A stretch of 64,000 nt of DNA. It comes from Flavobacteriales bacterium. Its GTDB lineage: Bacteria > Bacteroidota > Bacteroidia > Flavobacteriales_F > PHOS-HE28. The position numbers and the translations under genes are program-made. Position 1 is the stretch's first letter, and each line of letters starts with the position of its first letter. Location: positions 159,870 to 223,869 of the forward strand of contig JAEUSU010000007.1 of NCBI GenBank assembly GCA_016788635.1, written 5' to 3'. The notes beneath the pieces were generated by a model. It was not told the origin of the DNA. It saw only the letters and a program-made list of their open reading frames with translations, and searched no databases. Positions 30,486-39,501 of this stretch are shown here, piece by piece.

Positions 30486-30542
30486 CCGCGCACTGCCGCC
30501 TGCCACCTGGATGCCTTGAGCCTTGTCCCTTGAATCTTGCCC

Positions 30543-32468: not shown

Positions 32469-35400
32469 TCAGCGAACGACCGTTACGGAAACTCCATCCA
32501 GTGAACCACGCCTGCCGAACAGCACCAAACGATAGAGCCCCGGGGCGTAAGCCCCCATGTCCAACTCGGAAATGAACGGACCGGAATACACGGGCGATCG
32601 CTGCAACTCCACCCCGTGCATGTTGTAGACGCCGACATATCCTCTGAATTCGCCCATTGGCAGGAAGGTCACGATGTTCAACCGGCCGTTGGTGGGGTTG
32701 GGCTGGGCGCGGATCAACCCCTTCTTCGACTTGGGCGCAGAAGCGAGTGACTCGACCATGCTTCGCTCCTCGCCCGGCAGGATCACCGGCTCCTCGAAGC
32801 CCAGGCCCAGGTGGCGGGCCAGCAGGGCGCGGGCCGTAGCGTGGCCGGGCAGGCTGTCGTTCTCCGCGATGGCCAACAGGGTCTGGTGCGCCTGTTGCAC
32901 CAGCGTATCCGCGTTCTCCGGGTCCTGGGCGAGGGCCAGCACCACGCTCCATACGTCCGCCTCCTCATCGGCCAGGCCGTGTTCGTCCGGTGTTGCCACC
33001 CATGCTTCCGCCTCGGTCCATTCCCCGCGCGCGATCAGCAGGGCCAGCCGTTCCACCGGTGCGGCCGGCAGGTCCTCGTATTCCATCATGTACACCAGAC
33101 TGTCCAGCGGAACGCTCGCCGTGTCCTGCAGCATCAGGCGCAGATAGTCGTGCCGGGCGCGCTCGGCGTCCAGCCGTAGGCTGCCCAGTTCCGCCTCGAT
33201 CCAGCGCCGCCAGGGAATGTTGCCGGTCTGCCCGTCCTGCACCAGCTCGATGAAGGACTCGTCCAGCTGGCTGCGCTCCACGGCCAGCAGCACGTCCGGG
33301 CTCAGGGGGCTGTTGGCCAGCAGGGCCTCGGTGAGGTGCCAGGGATCCATGGCCGCGTCGCGCTGCACGCAGCGGATCAGTATGCCGTCCGTCACCTTGG
33401 GCGCGGCGGCCAGCAGGGCGTTGCGCAGGGTGAAGGAACTGATGCCGGGGTCCAAAACAAGCCCCAACAGGTAGTCTGTGTCGCCGCCGTCCACCTCGCC
33501 GTTGTACACCGCCTTCAATTGGGTCAAGGGGCCTATGGCGCCTGAGAAGGTCAGGAACACACCGGCTGGTGCCATTTCGTTGCTCGTATGCTTCGGACAG
33601 GAAGAACCCGTTCCGTCACCAGCTTGGTATGAGAACGTTGTAGATTGAAGCACTACATGTGGAGGCAGTGTGGAACAGTATGGAGTGGTAAATTGATCGG
33701 TGTGGTGGAAATATGTAATGCCACTTGAAGAAGCATTGTTATGGTAAATGTCCGATTGATCCGCTCCTGGAGGACATTCGGGATAGAATCGATTACCAGC
33801 TGGTATGGATGTTGACCCTTGGTTCGCCGCAACGGCCGCTGTGCTCTTGGTCACAGCGGCGTCATAGAAGCAATCATCGGAGCCATCGGCATTCCCATAC
33901 TGGTTGCAACGGAATTGCAGGCCGAAACCCTGGGGACTTCCGATAACACGGTTATTGCCCTGCATGATGCTGCCCGCATACAGCTTGTTGAACTTGTTGC
34001 GGTAGAATTCATTGGGAGTGAGGGTGCTGCCTTTCACGAGCAGGCCCACGTTGCCCACGGTGTTCACACCCGTGAACACATTGTCCTCCACTTCGTAGCC
34101 CTCGCAGCCGTTCAGGTACACGCCGTAGGGCATGGGCCAGGGCAGTATGCTGGCGTCCAGCGGCCAGGAGCCGTCGCCGGTGGGGATGGTGAAGGTGTTT
34201 CCGGTGATCTCGGCATTGAACACGCCGGTGAGTACCACGCCGCGGTCGTTGTTGGAGAAGGTGTTGTTGCGGATCCAACAGGGCTTCAGGCCGGTGGCAT
34301 CACTGGCGCGAATACCGATGGTGAGCTGGTGGAAGGTGCTGCCCTTGGCGGTGAAGCGGGAATCGAGGGAGATGATGCCCGCCGGACGTTGTTTGGCATA
34401 ACCAGCGTTCAGCGTTTCATCCAGGGATAGGGTGCAGTTCACGAAGTTCACACCGCTCACGCCATCCAGTCGTGCCATTTCGGAATAGGCCATGGCACCT
34501 TCATGTGCGGTGGCGGTCTTGGTGAATACCGTGTTGTTGAACTGGCACCGGTTGGCCTGTTCGCTTCCGTTGTGGATGTTCTGGTAGGGCTTCAGCCATA
34601 CCGCTCGGCCGCAGTTGCGGAAGGTGCCGCCCGTGGTGGACGTGATGATGCCGCCGGAGGTCCCGGGCACGAAATGGCCTTGGGCATCGGTACCAAAGGC
34701 GCGAGCACCCACCAGCGCGTGCTCGATGGTGCCCCCGTTCATCAGCCGCAACACGCCCTGGTTGGTGGCGGGTATCTGGGATTGGCCGGCCACGCCCCAC
34801 ACGTCCACCCCCCACCATGCCTGTTCGCACCGGTTGGTAAGCGTGCCGCCATCCATCACCACGGCCGCTCCGGGGTCCACCACCAGCCGGCCACCTTTCG
34901 GGAAGTAGGCGGTGCCGGTAATGGTGAGCGTGGCGCCGCCGAGCACACGCAGGTTGCCATGCACGAACTCATCCCCGCTCCAGGTGGTGTTCACAGCGAT
35001 CTGTTGGGTGTGGGCATAGGTTTCTGTCATAGGTAACAGATCGGCCTGCCATACACCCCGTCCGAAGGTGGCTGCCATCAGTTTGCCTGTGCAGTTGTTG
35101 ATCCGCAGTTCAACTACGCGGATATTGGGTACGTCGCCGTATCGCGCCCAACACGACATGGCGTTGTCCTTGAAGTACACACCTGCATCCGTTGCGATGT
35201 ACAGCCGGTCAGCGGTGCCGGATTGGTACACGATGTTGTTCACCGGAAGATCGGCAAGGGTGCCCAGAGGATCGTCGTTCGACCAGGTGCTTCCGCCATC
35301 CTCCGAGCGGTAGACCTTCACCAACGGATCATACCCTGTAAATGACAGCCAGACCCGATCCGCGTTCCGTGGGTCTACAGCTATGCCAGTGATGATGGGC

Positions 35401-37610
35401 TTCGCAATGGTGCCCACACTCATGTCCGGTAATCCCGAGGTGATGTCGAAGAACCGATCCACGTTATAGTCTCCGTCGTTCCCGCCGGTAATGGACTTCA
35501 TGAGCTTGGGCTCCAGATTCCAGGTCTCAAGACCGGCATTGTCCACGCCACCCTGGGTCACATAGATCACTTGGGGGTCGCTCTCGGCGATCGCTACCTC
35601 CTTGAGTTGTCTCTTCCACATAGGGGTGAGCGAGGGATCCTTGCTCACATCGGATTGCAACTTCCAAATATCCGTTGGTTGATCACCTGTGCTGGGTACG
35701 TCCTTGATCCGCTCATAGAGTTCGGTGAAGCACATCCAGGGACCATTCAAAGCGGGATGCTCCACAACTTGGAATGTCCTGGAAAGCATCACGACTTCTG
35801 GTGGCGCTTCGACCTCATCCACTGGTCTGTAAGGGTTCTCCTCGTGGTTGGCGTTCGCTGGGTAGTCATGGCGCTTCAGAGACCCCTGATTCACAATGAA
35901 CGCGCAGTTCCTGGAGCGTTGATCGAGAACTTGTGCACCGTAGCCATCGCCACCCCCCACGTTAGTCCATACGCGTTGTCCTCCTACCCGTCTGTGTACA
36001 TCAGTCCCCGTATCCTGGCTACCAATGATGACGACGTCTTTTTCAATCCCTGAAGTACGAAAACGCCAGATCGTCTTCACTGCCAGTCCATTGTTGCGGA
36101 ACTGCCAATCGGTGGTCTGTGCCACGCTGCCGGAGATCGTCTTTGCGCTGATCCCTCCATCATGCCCGGCGAACAATCTGGGGTTGGCCACATTGGGCTG
36201 GAACGTGAGCGCGTGAATGTCCGCATGGCAGTTATAGCCAGCGGAGACGCCATACGCTGATTCATCGGTGAACCCGGGTCCCACAGTGATATCCCTGTCA
36301 CCTTTCACTTTGGTGTACCCGAAGAAGACCATTTTGGCATCCACGGGAGACACGGCGATAGGCATCCATGTCGGGGAGATCTGATTGAGAGCATCAGGGC
36401 TGTACTCCTGTGTGTTCGAATTGAAATTGAGGGGTGTGCTTTGAGAGTGAAGCAAGGACCATGATGCCCCGTCGAAGCGATAGATTTGGCAAACCACATT
36501 ACCAGGATAATTCACATTCGATTGATCGGCACATACGAGGTAGGCATACACGTAAGCTGGCTCGGCAGGAGTAACGGCCAGATTGATGCGATCCACTTCA
36601 AAGCCGGTCAATGCGTCCAGGTCCAAACCCGTACCCGGTCCCGTCATACTCTGCCACGTCACCCCTTCATCATCCGACATGTAGATGTCCGTGCCACCGG
36701 CGTAGAGGGTGGATGCGTCGCCAGGTTTGAACTCCAGGCCGCGTATATCCAGCGAGGTCATGGCAATGCCACTGCTTGTGTTCTGCCATGTTGGATCGGG
36801 GGCCAGAGCATTCGAACATTTGTATACACCCAGTGAGGTGGCCACGTAGACCTTGTTCCCATCTGTGGGATCGGATAAGATCCTTCTGGTCGTTCCTCCA
36901 TCGTTGAAATCGCTCAGAAAGCCATCATTGATCGGATGCCATGTAGCTCCCCGGTCCAAGGACCGGTAGATCCCGATCGTATAGATCGGATTGATGAGCG
37001 CCGTATTCGACTCCCATTGAGGGAATAGTCCACCATCTGCATGGCCGGTGGAAATGAACAGATGGTCGGAGTTGAGATGGTCCACTGCTACATCCGCCAC
37101 GCAGGTCAAGGGTAAATGATCGGTGTTCACCACTGCCCAATTCGTGCCGTCGTCATCACTACGCCATAAACCGCCGAATGAGGAAGTCGCATAGACGGTG
37201 GTATTCGTGGTGCCATTGTACTGGGGGTCGAAGGTTATGCGGTGGATCTGGCCTACACCCCTTGCCCCGGTTGCCAAAGACCCCTCCGGCTGGCCCACAG
37301 GTCCGATCATCTCCCATTCAACATTTGCGTCTGGACAAGAGCCGGAAGCAGAGTGGTGAGAAATGGCGTAGGCGGTAATCGCCTGTGCCGCAACGCGAAA
37401 ATCACCATGAGGCCACAACCGGCTACCCCATTCAAATGCGGCTCTGTCGTACATTTTGGCATGACCGCTGCGCGGAACGGGATCCACGATCGGATGCAAC
37501 GCATAGTACGCACCCAAGCGGTCGTGAAATGGCATTGCGGGTGGAGTTTGGGCCTCTGCGATCAGGTTTCCGAAGCCAAACGCCAGCATGAGGATGCAGA
37601 GCTTGAGCAT
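32469..37610 (-). CDS. giant secreted protein (~1,713 aa): BNR/Asp-box beta-propeller region, parallel beta-helix region, helical region, T9SS C-terminal sorting domain
   Basis: The signal peptide is MLKLCILMLAFGFGNLIAEAQ. Repeated SxDxGxTW-type boxes are present (SDDDGTNW, SLDRGATW, SDDEGVTW, SEDGGSTW). An NNTFSNNDRGVVL...ITGNTF beta-helix signature follows. The CTD is IRAQPNPTNGRLNIV...GLYRLVLF. Confidence 0.75.
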   Translation of the reverse strand: MLKLCILMLAFGFGNLIAEAQTPPAMPFHDRLGAYYALHPIVDPVPRSGHAKMYDRAAFEWGSRLWPHGDFRVAAQAITAYAISHHSASGSCPDANVEWEMIGPVGQPEGSLATGARGVGQIHRITFDPQYNGTTNTTVYATSSFGGLWRSDDDGTNWAVVNTDHLPLTCVADVAVDHLNSDHLFISTGHADGGLFPQWESNTALINPIYTIGIYRSLDRGATWHPINDGFLSDFNDGGTTRRILSDPTDGNKVYVATSLGVYKCSNALAPDPTWQNTSSGIAMTSLDIRGLEFKPGDASTLYAGGTDIYMSDDEGVTWQSMTGPGTGLDLDALTGFEVDRINLAVTPAEPAYVYAYLVCADQSNVNYPGNVVCQIYRFDGASWSLLHSQSTPLNFNSNTQEYSPDALNQISPTWMPIAVSPVDAKMVFFGYTKVKGDRDITVGPGFTDESAYGVSAGYNCHADIHALTFQPNVANPRLFAGHDGGISAKTISGSVAQTTDWQFRNNGLAVKTIWRFRTSGIEKDVVIIGSQDTGTDVHRRVGGQRVWTNVGGGDGYGAQVLDQRSRNCAFIVNQGSLKRHDYPANANHEENPYRPVDEVEAPPEVVMLSRTFQVVEHPALNGPWMCFTELYERIKDVPSTGDQPTDIWKLQSDVSKDPSLTPMWKRQLKEVAIAESDPQVIYVTQGGVDNAGLETWNLEPKLMKSITGGNDGDYNVDRFFDITSGLPDMSVGTIAKPIITGIAVDPRNADRVWLSFTGYDPLVKVYRSEDGGSTWSNDDPLGTLADLPVNNIVYQSGTADRLYIATDAGVYFKDNAMSCWARYGDVPNIRVVELRINNCTGKLMAATFGRGVWQADLLPMTETYAHTQQIAVNTTWSGDEFVHGNLRVLGGATLTITGTAYFPKGGRLVVDPGAAVVMDGGTLTNRCEQAWWGVDVWGVAGQSQIPATNQGVLRLMNGGTIEHALVGARAFGTDAQGHFVPGTSGGIITSTTGGTFRNCGRAVWLKPYQNIHNGSEQANRCQFNNTVFTKTATAHEGAMAYSEMARLDGVSGVNFVNCTLSLDETLNAGYAKQRPAGIISLDSRFTAKGSTFHQLTIGIRASDATGLKPCWIRNNTFSNNDRGVVLTGVFNAEITGNTFTIPTGDGSWPLDASILPWPMPYGVYLNGCEGYEVEDNVFTGVNTVGNVGLLVKGSTLTPNEFYRNKFNKLYAGSIMQGNNRVIGSPQGFGLQFRCNQYGNADGSDDCFYDAAVTKSTAAVAANQGSTSIPAGNRFYPECPPGADQSDIYHNNASSSGITYFHHTDQFTTPYCSTLPPHVVLQSTTFSYQAGDGTGSSCPKHTSNEMAPAGVFLTFSGAIGPLTQLKAVYNGEVDGGDTDYLLGLVLDPGISSFTLRNALLAAAPKVTDGILIRCVQRDAAMDPWHLTEALLANSPLSPDVLLAVERSQLDESFIELVQDGQTGNIPWRRWIEAELGSLRLDAERARHDYLRLMLQDTASVPLDSLVYMMEYEDLPAAPVERLALLIARGEWTEAEAWVATPDEHGLADEEADVWSVVLALAQDPENADTLVQQAHQTLLAIAENDSLPGHATARALLARHLGLGFEEPVILPGEERSMVESLASAPKSKKGLIRAQPNPTNGRLNIVTFLPMGEFRGYVGVYNMHGVELQRSPVYSGPFISELDMGAYAPGLYRLVLFGRRGSLDGVSVTVVR

Positions 37611-37756
37611 GCTGATGGGGGGTATCAATTGAACCGACAGCCTCCACCAACCCACGCCACAGATGCCAATATAGCACTGCTCTTGGTGAATGGTAACGCT
37701 CAACCCCGCGATGCCGCCCGCTCAGCGTGGTTCAGTGACGAGTAGTGCACAAAGGC

Positions 37757-37801
37757 GCCTACTTCGCCGAGCACATGCTGCCGGAGCTGAAGAAGCCTTA
37801 G
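37757..37801 (+). repeat. direct repeat DR-R = orphan copy of the gldC 3' end (AYFAEHMLPELKKP-stop)
   Basis: gcctacttcgccgagcacatgctgccggagctgaagaagcc is followed by ttag. In the gldC frame it encodes an alternative C-terminus and a TAG stop at 37799-37801, 10 nt from the convergent engB stop. Confidence 0.85.
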
Positions 37802-37811
37802 GTCGGGCGCG

Positions 37812-38435
37812 CTACGCGGAACCCCATCCGGCATTCACCTCGGCGATGAAGGCCAGCAGTTCCTCCCGCCCTTTGCCCGTCTCCACGCTGCTCAGGAACA
37901 TCATCGGCACTTCCTTCCAGGTCTTCTTCAGCGTGCGGCGGAAAAGCGCCACGTGACTTTCCACCTTGGGCATGGAGAGCTTGTCCGTTTTGGTGAACAC
38001 GATCACGAAGGGGATGCCCTCGGTGCCGAGCCAGTGGATCATGTCCAGGTCGTTCTGCTGCGGCTCCAGCCGGCTGTCCACCAGCAGGAACACGCATTGC
38101 AGGTTCTCCCTCCCGCGCAGGTAGGCGCGGATCATGCGTTCCCACGCGGCGCGTTCGTCCTTGCTGATCTTGGCGAAGCCGTAGCCGGGCAGGTCGGCCA
38201 GCAGCCAGGGTCGCGCATCGGTGAGCGTGCCTTCCACGCGGAAGTGCTCCACGTTGCGCGTGCGGCCCGGCGTGTTGCTCACGCGCGCCAGCTTGTTCAC
38301 CCCGCAGAGCATGTTGATCAACGAGCTCTTGCCCACGTTGCTGCGGCCGATGAAGGCGTACTCGGGAAGCGTGGGCTTGGGCCAGTGCTTCGCCTCGCGT
38401 CCGCTGCCGAGGTGTTGGGCTTTGAGGGTTTTCAT
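37812..38435 (-). CDS. engB: ribosome biogenesis GTP-binding protein YihA/YsxC (EngB)
   Basis: It has G1 GRSNVGKSSLIN, G3 DLPGYG and G4 TKTDK. I chose the start at MKTLKAQ (cat 38433-38435). The longer ORF in the track only reads through the heptamer array. Confidence 0.85.
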   Translation of the reverse strand: MKTLKAQHLGSGREAKHWPKPTLPEYAFIGRSNVGKSSLINMLCGVNKLARVSNTPGRTRNVEHFRVEGTLTDARPWLLADLPGYGFAKISKDERAAWERMIRAYLRGRENLQCVFLLVDSRLEPQQNDLDMIHWLGTEGIPFVIVFTKTDKLSMPKVESHVALFRRTLKKTWKEVPMMFLSSVETGKGREELLAFIAEVNAGWGSA

Positions 38436-38438
38436 GGG

Positions 38439-38669
38439 GAGTGACGAGTGGCGAGTACAGAGTGACGAGTACAGAGTGGCGAGTACAGAGTGGCGAGTAC
38501 AGAGTGACGAGTACAGAGTGGCGAGTACAGAGTGGCGAGTGGCGAGTACAGAGTGGCGAGTACAGAGTGACGAGTACAGAGTGGGGAGTGACGAGTACAG
38601 AGTGGCGAGTACAGAGTGGCGAGTGGCGAGTACAGAGTGGCGAGTGATGAGTTGCGAGTGGCGAGTGGG
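38439..38669. repeat. array of 33 head-to-tail heptanucleotide repeats (consensus GAGTNNN on + strand)
   Basis: The split was done by hand and gives GAGTACA x12, GAGTGGC x12, GAGTGAC x5, GAGTGGG x2, GAGTGAT x1 and GAGTTGC x1. There are no register breaks. The array ends 3 nt from the engB start codon. Confidence 0.95.
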
Positions 38670-38712
38670 CCTGCACACAGGACCTACTCACCACTCGGGT
38701 CTCGCCATTCAT

Positions 38713-39480
38713 CTACTCCCCGCTCAAGGTCTTCTTCAACCACGGATCCACGATGGCGATGAACTGCTCGGGCTGTTCCATCATGGCCGCATGGCCGCAG
38801 GCCTCGATCCAGTGCAGTTCGCTGTGGGGGATGAGCTGGTGGAACTCCTCGGCCACGTGCGGCGGGGTGATGGTGTCCTGCCGGCCCCAGATGAGCAGGG
38901 TGGGCAGCTTCAATTTGGGCAGGTCCCGGGCCATGTTGTGGCGGATGGCGCTCTTGGCCAGGCTGAGGATGCGGATGAGCTTGCCCTTGTCGTTCACCGT
39001 GGCGTGGCATTCATCCACCAGTTCGTCGGTCACGTGCCGGGGGTCGTGGAAGGTGAGGGCGATGCGCTCTCGCAGGAAGGCCTTGTCCTCGCGCCGGGGG
39101 AAGCCGCCGCCGAAGGCGTTCTCGTACAGGCCGCTGCTGCCCGTGAGGATCAGCGACCGCACGCGATCGGGGTGTTTGCGGCAATAGATCAGGCTCACGT
39201 GCCCGCCCAGTGAATTGCCCAGCAGGTTCACCTGGCCGTAGCCCTTGTGCACGATGAAGCGCTTGAGGAAATCCGCCAGCGCCCCCACGTTGGTGTTGAG
39301 CAGCGGCAGGGTGTAGAGCGGTAGCATGGGCACCACCACCCGGTACTGGCGGGCGAAGTGCGCGAAGGTGACCTCGAAGTTGCTCAGCGCGCCGAACAGG
39401 CCGTGCAGGAAGATCAGCACCGGGCCGTCCCCTTCTTCCGCATAGCGGAACTCCCCTTCCTCTTTCAGTTGTGCACGCAT
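38713..39480 (-). CDS. alpha/beta-fold hydrolase
   Basis: It has the HGLFG oxyanion motif, the nucleophile elbow GNSLGGHV and a C-terminal catalytic His (CGHAAMMEQPE). The ATG at 39480 lies 13 nt downstream of a TACATTTG box. Confidence 0.75.
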   Translation of the reverse strand: MRAQLKEEGEFRYAEEGDGPVLIFLHGLFGALSNFEVTFAHFARQYRVVVPMLPLYTLPLLNTNVGALADFLKRFIVHKGYGQVNLLGNSLGGHVSLIYCRKHPDRVRSLILTGSSGLYENAFGGGFPRREDKAFLRERIALTFHDPRHVTDELVDECHATVNDKGKLIRILSLAKSAIRHNMARDLPKLKLPTLLIWGRQDTITPPHVAEEFHQLIPHSELHWIEACGHAAMMEQPEQFIAIVDPWLKKTLSGE

Positions 39481-39493
39481 GCCCCGGTGCGAC

Positions 39494-39501
39494 CAAATGT
39501 A
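39494..39501 (-). promoter_or_regulatory. Bacteroidota -7 promoter box (TACATTTG on - strand)
   Basis: This is an exact match, 13 nt upstream of the hydrolase ATG (39480). Confidence 0.45.

Follow-up and report, generated by a model that had tools for sequence, protein, structure and literature searches.

Arrays of directly repeated heptanucleotides between genes are a described class of element in bacteria. Here we compare with its known members an array of 33 heptanucleotide units that lies directly ahead of engB, the gene of an essential ribosome-assembly GTPase, in 64,000 nucleotides of a Flavobacteriales bacterium genome (GTDB lineage Bacteria; Bacteroidota; Bacteroidia; Flavobacteriales_F; PHOS-HE28; assembly GCA_016788635.1, contig JAEUSU010000007.1, positions 159,870 to 223,869 of the forward strand). 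This whole stretch is called the window below, and positions are counted from its first letter. The closest described parallels come from MacGregor 2015 (PMC4679880), who reported TAACTGA and other heptamer direct repeats from Beggiatoaceae, Cyanobacteria and five Bacteroidetes. Those arrays reach 43 copies, mostly lie within a few nucleotides of a start codon, and in some cases stand upstream of essential genes such as those for ribosomal proteins. Long arrays were found in Gramella forsetii and Aequorivita sublithincola, close relatives of which have shorter, repeat-free spacers between the same neighbour genes, and contigs of other strains stop within the repeats. The candidate binders named in that work were S1, cold-shock proteins (Csp; for CspB, one heptamer per monomer) and CsrA.

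Heptamers were the most over-represented class of long simple sequence repeats (SSRs) according to Mrazek 2007, as cited in PMC4679880 and PMC4692102, with polymerase slippage proposed. Rehm 2015 (PMC4692102) described inverted pairs of the G-rich heptamers GGGAATC in Xanthomonas and GGGGAYT in Nostoc, including an intercistronic 26-mer at pecE-pecF, together with a strand rule by which G-rich heptamers lie on the coding strand past stop codons and on the non-coding strand ahead of start codons. In cyanobacteria, hairpins of STRR elements (short repetitive sequences repeated in tandem) lie between hupS and hupL, where a role in transcript stability or translational coupling has been proposed (PMC2670836), and deletion of the heptamer arrays at the starts of Nostoc recO and recF changed reporter expression by about 1.5- to 2.9-fold (bioRxiv 10.1101/2022.06.06.494920). 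The only mechanistically solved case of such arrays is hmw1A of Haemophilus influenzae (PMC12721329, PMC8262952). There, (ATCTTTC)n in the 5'-untranslated region pairs with a G-rich segment as one arm of a long hairpin, processing of the duplex by RNase III raises expression, and a longer repeat gives lower expression (PMC12721329). For the class as a whole, function is not established (PMC4679880, PMC4692102).

In the window, Tandem Repeats Finder (TRF) and unit splitting delimited the array to 38439-38669, where 33 GAGTNNN units follow one another without interruption on the + strand (12 GAGTGGC, 12 GAGTACA, 5 GAGTGAC, 2 GAGTGGG, 1 GAGTGAT and 1 GAGTTGC). Units 10-17 are identical to units 22-29, an 8-unit (56-nt) block that recurs 84 nt (12 units) further on. 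The unit number, the tally and this duplication reproduce exactly what an earlier note, made from the letters of this DNA, had reported. Its spacing was confirmed as well: the spacer from the stop of the upstream hydrolase gene (38713) to the engB ATG (38435) measures 277 nt, most of it array, and the engB-proximal end of the array lies 3 nt from the ATG, with CCC between the last unit and the start. TRF reported periods of 14, 21 and 35 over the interval and scored period 14 best, with the consensus GAGTGGCGAGTACA; the underlying repeat is therefore a pair of alternating heptamers, with 7-nt insertions and deletions.

The array has a gene-sense orientation on the − strand, where it reads (NNNACTC)33, chiefly GCCACTC, TGTACTC and GTCACTC, with 44.6% C, 13% G and 72% pyrimidine. 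Its G/C skew is 0.32, compared with at most 0.22 in any other 231-nt stretch of the 64-kb window. No ATG, GTG or TTG and no stop triplet occurs on the sense strand of the array in any frame; the antisense strand holds 22 start-type and 7 stop triplets. A local-folding model gave the array a mean predicted unpaired probability of 0.67, compared with 0.42-0.48 for the coding flanks. With 33 consecutive tetramer matches at 7-nt spacing and so extreme a skew, a chance origin is excluded. G-quadruplex formation was ruled out by inspection, the array having no regularly spaced G3 runs. An Rfam scan returned no relevant match for the array locus, and a window-wide listing of inverted repeats was uninformative.

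The array adds a large new example to the known bacterial heptanucleotide SSR class and does not represent a new kind; the cyanobacterial STRRs, the TAACTGA repeats and the G-rich heptamers of Xanthomonas and Nostoc are members of this class too. The array shows the marks of the class, namely head-to-tail 7-nt units beyond chance, an intergenic position near a stop and a start, agreement with the strand rule and lineage-specific presence. A scan of species-representative genomes with five GAGTNNN units as the query found at least 120 loci (L011-L130), against about 1 expected by chance. Among the matches listed, to which the counts in this and the next paragraph refer, about one third are cyanobacterial and about 25 belong to Bacteroidota (among them Marinirhabdus, Chryseobacterium, Tenacibaculum, Aequorivita and Saprospiraceae, and further Hymenobacter, Ohtaekwangia, Prevotella and Flavobacteriales metagenome-assembled genomes, MAGs); Planctomycetota, Chloroflexota, Acidobacteriota, Gemmatimonadota and Proteobacteria are represented too. 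The earlier note had known of no described equivalent in Bacteroidota, a statement overturned by these loci and by the arrays of five Bacteroidetes in PMC4679880; the likeness to cyanobacterial STRR elements that it drew is supported.

The longest array among these matches has 25 units, fewer than the 33 of the window. At the 25 Bacteroidota loci every array falls between genes, and in most cases these run in the same direction. For 35 of the 132 arrays an inverted partner (2 or more exact units) occurs no further than 150 nt away, always in the order 5'-(GAGTNNN)n, loop, (NNNACTC)m-3' (35:0 against the reverse), and the window has this order as well. Orientation was evaluated in 41 co-directional contexts, from loci with a GC content of at most 0.56 and with crude gene calls by longest open reading frame (ORF). 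Arrays reading GAGT in the sense direction lay a median of 7 nt past the upstream stop, and those reading ACTC a median of 21 nt ahead of the downstream start (22:4 versus 3:12, Fisher p = 1.2e-4). The window fits this orientation rule on both arms, with a GAGT arm after the stop and the ACTC array before the start. A translated search of a protein collection with the repeat peptides returned only two array-derived ORFs, and gave no evidence of a dispersed family with identical units.

Two further loci are of interest for their units. A low-GC contig (L138, ENA ERZ27280606, positions 1-508), the source of one of those two ORFs, carries (GAGTACA/GAGTGGA)x18 and then (ATAAACC)x4 upstream of an ATG; its ACA and GGN units alternate nearly as in the window in an unrelated genome, which is probably from Bacteroidota, judging by the TAtcTTTG promoter box that precedes the array. 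In a Flavobacteriales MAG (L044, JBKCDO010000305.1, 5960-6170), GGACTGA/GGACTGG units, (GAGTACT)x7 and an inverted (CCAGTCC)n run share one intergenic region. The inverted run equals CCCCAGT, which we take to be the cyanobacterial STRR1 unit, here in a Bacteroidota genome. The STRR1-3 units are CCCCAGT, TTGGTCA and CAACAGT, none of which occurs in tandem in the window. An AGT/ACT core is common to CCCCAGT, CAACAGT, TAACTGA and the window units.

Compared with the TAACTGA family (PMC4679880), the window array is alike in its intergenic head-to-tail 7-nt units that run toward a start codon and end a few nucleotides away, in having an essential gene downstream, in the shorter, repeat-free spacers of its relatives and in the contigs of other assemblies that end within the repeats. 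It differs in its NNNACTC unit, in the alternation of two units that yields a 14-nt higher-order repeat and in a short inverted arm, and the window contains 0 tandem TAACTGA pairs. Like cyanobacterial STRRs (PMC2670836) it has a 7-bp unit, lies between genes, often within an operon in that family, and can form a hairpin through inverted arrays, but its host is an uncultured Flavobacteriales lineage represented by a MAG and its unit sequences are not those of classical STRR1-3. With the GGGAATC and GGGGAYT repeats (PMC4692102) it shares the status of an intergenic heptamer SSR, the inverted pairs, the intercistronic setting and the strand rule measured here, whereas those repeats form G-quadruplexes and GAGTGGC and GAGTACA have no G3 runs at regular spacing. 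The hmw1A/hmw2A arrays (PMC12721329, PMC8262952) are similar in their pyrimidine-rich heptamers upstream of a start, in a G-rich partner segment in a hairpin and in changes by 7-nt steps, yet they belong to a phase-variable adhesin locus of a pathogen adapted to its host, for which the promoter is mapped, the hairpin spans about 10 repeats and dependence on RNase III is proven, while engB is a housekeeping gene. As a contingency locus of the hmw1A type the array is a poor fit, with engB downstream in place of a surface or restriction-modification gene and no promoter box in the 277-nt spacer. In the REP/BIME elements of enterobacteria a single conserved palindrome is found in dispersed copies, with a link to RAYT transposases. 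These elements resemble the window locus as intercistronic operon hairpins that can stabilise the upstream mRNA segment, but they are not tandem arrays.

Support for the array in sequencing reads came from exact-protein look-ups in Logan contigs (k = 31 assembler) covering five different sequencing runs. An identical EngB with the proximal 40 nt of the array was present in contigs of SRR10547829, SRR10547830 and SRR34411019, and an identical 255-aa hydrolase with the distal ~50 nt in contigs of SRR10547830, SRR10547831 and SRR12425358. Both array edges equal the window base for base in all of these contigs. Every one of them ends inside the array, where 31-mers become ambiguous, which is the behaviour expected of a k = 31 assembler at a repeat with recurring 31-mers. 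Because both edges recur in five read sets and the adjacency of hydrolase and engB is syntenic with relatives, the array is real and is not an artefact of one assembly, a possibility that the earlier note had raised; the count of 33 is read from the source assembly alone. The longest exact repeat inside the array is 60 nt, so assemblers with k above 61 can thread it. Two scans of JGI metagenome contigs, one with an internal 21-mer of the array and one with the engB junction, gave no match, and the source species is absent from that collection.

The downstream gene, engB (yihA/ysxC; 37812..38435 on the − strand, 207 aa, start ATG 38435), matches the EngB profile TIGR03598 with 199 bits, profile position 4 falling at residue 9, and its identification by this match is solid. 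Upstream on the same strand lies an alpha/beta-fold hydrolase gene (38713..39480, ATG 39480), whose 255-aa product is the form on record. The EngB homologues that match best, with 76-81% identity, belong to uncultured Flavobacteriales. The hydrolase is directly upstream of engB in all relatives examined, and the layout of a divergent mraZ, then hydrolase, then engB is kept in six different relatives. The hydrolase-engB spacers in relatives measure −1 nt with an overlapping TGATG (L009), 7 nt (L010), 29 nt (L137), 51 nt (L131-L136) and 70 nt (L007/L008), and no period-7 array occurs in those examined. On this comparison of sequences, the array is a lineage-specific insertion into an otherwise tight junction, which is probably translationally coupled.

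In L007, the closest relative, the hydrolase stop is followed by a modest hairpin and then by a C-rich tract. L007 also carries (Logan SRR25375756, 3638-3694) an inverted heptamer hairpin of 3+3 units directly after the engB stop, TTGTCAG TTGTCGG TCGTGAG, loop, CTGACAA CTGACAA CCGACAA, at −30.1 kcal/mol (z = −4.0), and its unit AACTGAC has 6 of 7 bases as in the published TAACTGA family. Because L007 has such a hairpin after engB, heptamer hairpins count as a feature of the lineage.

A second heptamer run, CCTTGAG CCTTGTC CCTTGAA TCTTGCC, is found at 30515-30542 on the + strand of the window. This pyrimidine-rich run ends 1 nt from ATG 30543 in a 57-nt spacer, with a gldB-like ORF upstream and a gldC-like ORF downstream, and is the sole other run of four units with period 7 in the 64 kb (chance ~0.004). 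In relatives the gldB-gldC spacers are 5-45 nt long and have no heptamer run. As a heptamer run also abuts the gldC start, heptamer arrays are not tied to engB. The special link to engB suggested by the earlier note therefore falls away, given that the closest relatives have no array at this spacer, a second run lies at gldC and, over the 41 contexts, ACTC-sense arrays in general abut the downstream start of whichever gene it is; the comparison with related genomes that it proposed yielded spacers of −1 to 70 nt and no arrays.

The four ORFs that the earlier note had named as running through the array exist, and GTG 38678 is in frame with engB. Its suggestion of a variable N-terminal extension of EngB did not survive the comparison with relatives, whose EngB N-termini align from ATG 38435 (M[KER][TS]L..[EQ]HLGSGRE), where the family profile also starts. 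Because of this alignment we take GTG 38678 and ATG 38712 not to be engB starts. One of the frames, an ORF of 304 aa (37798-38712, − strand), begins at the ATG adjoining the hydrolase TAG and crosses the array and then all of engB out of frame. The +2 frame of engB is open over 206 codons, as are about 2.3% of such windows per frame in the background. An ORF starting at ATG 38712 would be in frame with engB if the array had one unit fewer or two more.

Read in the sense direction, the spacer comprises the hydrolase TAG, ATGAATGGCGAGACCC, GAGTGGT GAGTAGG, a 13-nt loop, CCCACTC GCCACTC and so on through the 33 units, CCC and the engB ATG. The two GAGT-type units GAGTGGT GAGTAGG (38683..38696, −) form a short inverted arm 16 nt past the hydrolase stop, and degenerate GAGT-like units (GAGCGGG GAGTAGA) reach back to ~38725, inside the last hydrolase codons. 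The arm, the loop (38670-38682) and the first two array units make up a hairpin at 38656..38696 (−) with a predicted −30.5 kcal/mol (z = −4.2), and 0 of 200 shuffles were as stable. As an intrinsic terminator this hairpin is lacking a U-tract, being followed by GCAACUCAUCACUC, and a scan for sigma-70 promoters and terminators found no site in the hydrolase-engB spacer. The Bacteroidota −7 promoter box (TAnnTTTG) is likewise absent from the 277-nt spacer. Its sole match near the gene pair is TACATTTG (39494..39501, −), 14 nt upstream of the hydrolase ATG, a consensus match only, in a window with 8 such matches against 4.7 expected.

The segment between the stop and the arm, ATGAATGGCGAGACCC (38697..38712, −), directly follows the hydrolase TAG and begins with ATG and then GAGACCC. 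It resembles the 5' ends of engB in the window (ATGAAAACCC) and in the relative L009 (ATGGAGACCC, whose ATG overlaps the hydrolase stop), and may have been left by duplication of the stop/start junction of the ancestor. A miniature inverted-repeat transposable element or a target-site duplication was considered because the two ends of the element resemble each other in ATGAA..ACCC, and was rejected, as the inverted-array loci L076, L099, L012 and L058 have no flanking direct repeats.

The explanation that we favour, with about even confidence, is that the array is the lineage-specific, slippage-expanded arm of a stop-proximal heptamer hairpin and now serves engB as an open, silent leader by which its initiation is freed from coupling to the hydrolase gene. 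The ancestral hydrolase-engB junction would have been tight, with stop and start overlapping or a few nucleotides apart. A small hairpin of the form 5'-(GAGTNNN)n, loop, (NNNACTC)m-3' would have arisen just past the hydrolase stop, and its C-rich 3' arm would then have expanded to 33 units, reaching the engB ATG, through replication slippage and unequal recombination. Traces of growth are present at several scales, with 7-nt and 14-nt steps and the 56-nt block recurring 84 nt on. Since the two genes are probably transcribed from a promoter upstream of the hydrolase, the array would be intercistronic RNA. That RNA would be pyrimidine-rich, G-poor, devoid of start and stop codons and largely single-stranded by prediction, so that translational coupling would be lost. 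It would also insulate the engB start from the G-rich upstream sequence, leaving an open site for Shine-Dalgarno-independent initiation.

In the local-folding model, the probability that positions −18 to +7 of engB are unpaired was 0.033 at 20 or more units and 0.006-0.009 at 5-10 units, compared with 1.6e-7 at 0 units and 3e-6 at a direct junction, a prediction that supports insulation of the engB start. The GAGU arm and the first ACUC units (38656-38696) would form a stable hairpin that closes the hydrolase cistron at its 3' end, and there the mRNA is likely to be stabilised or processed. The number of units probably drifts by steps of 7 nt, with at most a modest quantitative effect on engB. 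The slippage-prone spacer affecting engB coupling or translation, one of the roles put forward in the earlier note, stands as the best functional guess.

Several points weigh against an expanded hairpin arm that uncouples engB. A single long array and one run of 4 units are all that the 64 kb contain, from which no genome-wide tendency follows. The array edges are identical in five read sets, with no polymorphism seen and with the array interior not visible at k = 31. For co-transcription of the pair the evidence is synteny and one consensus promoter match, and the predicted accessibility was obtained by thermodynamic modelling in which the window settings were arbitrary. An untranslated, C-rich, G-poor RNA of 231 nt would also be a substrate for Rho loading, which would lower engB expression. 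The history of arm expansion, finally, is drawn from a single relative whose hairpin differs and is shorter.

A neutral origin, in which the array is a by-product of slippage tolerated only since its orientation adds no start or stop codons or structure, has no effect on engB and leaves that gene to a promoter or initiation route of its own, is possible, and we hold it only tentatively. The array is missing from all relatives examined and so is dispensable for engB function, members of the class adjoin unrelated genes in many phyla, and purifying selection against harmful orientations could by itself account for the orientation rule; moreover, the class is without an established function (PMC4679880, PMC4692102). 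Set against this, the array replaces a tight, probably coupled junction, where some change in engB initiation seems unavoidable, and removal of the recO and recF arrays in Nostoc does shift reporter expression (~1.5- to 2.9-fold, bioRxiv 10.1101/2022.06.06.494920). Another alternative is a hairpin working as in hmw1A, in which RNase III would cut the GAGU-ACUC duplex, separate the hydrolase and engB transcripts and leave engB graded by unit number. Such a role gains from the stable joining of a G-rich arm to pyrimidine-rich heptamers, from the several GCCACTC GCCACTC sites in the array with which the short arm could pair, and from the hmw1A precedent itself, with its (ATCTTTC)n arm, G-rich partner, RNase III and expression that falls with repeat length (PMC12721329). 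We nevertheless judge it unlikely, because the duplex here spans only ~14 bp against 10 repeats in hmw, the order of the arms is reversed relative to hmw, engB is a housekeeping and not a contingency gene, and no variation in copy number was seen.

Attenuation by Rho is a further candidate, with untranslated C-rich RNA acting as a rut-like loading site that lowers read-through from the hydrolase to engB and with polarity set by array length. Rho requires C-rich, G-poor, ribosome-free RNA. The array offers 44.6% C and 13% G over 231 nt, beyond the ~70 nt or more of a rut site by composition, is the most skewed stretch of the window, is predicted to be unstructured and would be untranslated unless ATG 38712 were used. 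We consider this quite unlikely all the same, since strong polarity would be costly for an essential gene and a terminating role is hard to square with ACTC-sense arrays directly ahead of the starts of many genes. Should ATG 38712 serve for re-initiation, translation through the array would turn it into a frame-switching contingency device, with 32 or 35 units giving an N-terminally extended EngB. The adjacent TAG and ATG, the 304-aa ORF (37798-38712) that traverses the array, the absence of stops in all sense frames, the 206-codon open +2 frame of engB (2.3% background per frame) and a spacer of 277 nt, which is 1 mod 3 so that a change of one unit shifts the frame, all speak for such a switch; the conservation of EngB N-termini from ATG 38435, with an extension in no relative, the lethality of an OFF state in an essential gene, the only mildly unusual open frame in a genome of 64% GC and a repeat peptide with no homologues except two other translated arrays make it very unlikely.

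We give hardly any credence to an assembly artefact or to a periodic protein-binding platform of the HutP/TRAP type on the + strand. Repeats are known to cause misassembly and contigs of other assemblies break here, but both unique junctions occur in five read sets, the gene adjacency is syntenic and internal repeats do not exceed 60 nt. The 7-nt period does equal the spacing of HutP sites, a parallel drawn in the earlier note; however, both flanking genes have the GAG triplets on their antisense strand, no gene on the + strand is there to transcribe the triplets and no Rfam match was found, so that the parallel is dropped.

A wider reading would treat heptamer arrays as more than debris of slippage, namely as cross-phylum RNA elements of fixed polarity, in which GAGU units close one cistron and ACUC units open the next, inverted pairs keep the order 5'-GAGU...ACUC-3' throughout, and the 7-nt register matches the footprint of OB-fold single-strand binders such as Csp or S1. 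A long ACUC array would then be a tunable, start- and stop-free landing pad for ribosomes that replaces coupling for an essential gene in Bacteroidota that lack Shine-Dalgarno sequences. We regard this as speculative and rather unlikely.

The locus shows that an essential gene for a ribosome-assembly GTPase can be retained while the spacer ahead of it lengthens from ~0 to 277 nt of repeat. Growth of this spacer amounts to a natural experiment on translation initiation in Bacteroidota without Shine-Dalgarno sequences or coupling. If they hold genome-wide, the orientation rule (p = 1.2e-4) and the 35:0 polarity of inverted pairs from several phyla among the matches listed would argue that selection at the mRNA level shapes a so far unexplained class. 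Such arrays also interrupt assemblies made from short reads and give rise to long ORFs that are spurious, which is relevant to annotation.

Two minor observations concern the other side of engB. A two-unit string at 37733-37746, noticed earlier as a degenerate copy of the repeat, is at chance level: one-mismatch matches number 43 in all, the majority of them within the array, where chance predicts 34 ± 6. Further downstream (32469-37703, −) engB is followed by a co-directional gene for a 1744-aa beta-helix/Sortilin-like protein and then by one for a Por_Secre_tail protein. In the relatives L009, L010, L131 and L137 a convergent gldC-gldB pair lies downstream of engB; in the window gldB-gldC lies ~7 kb from the engB locus and on the other strand. 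Judged by gene order, the locus adjoining the array is rearranged relative to these four relatives.

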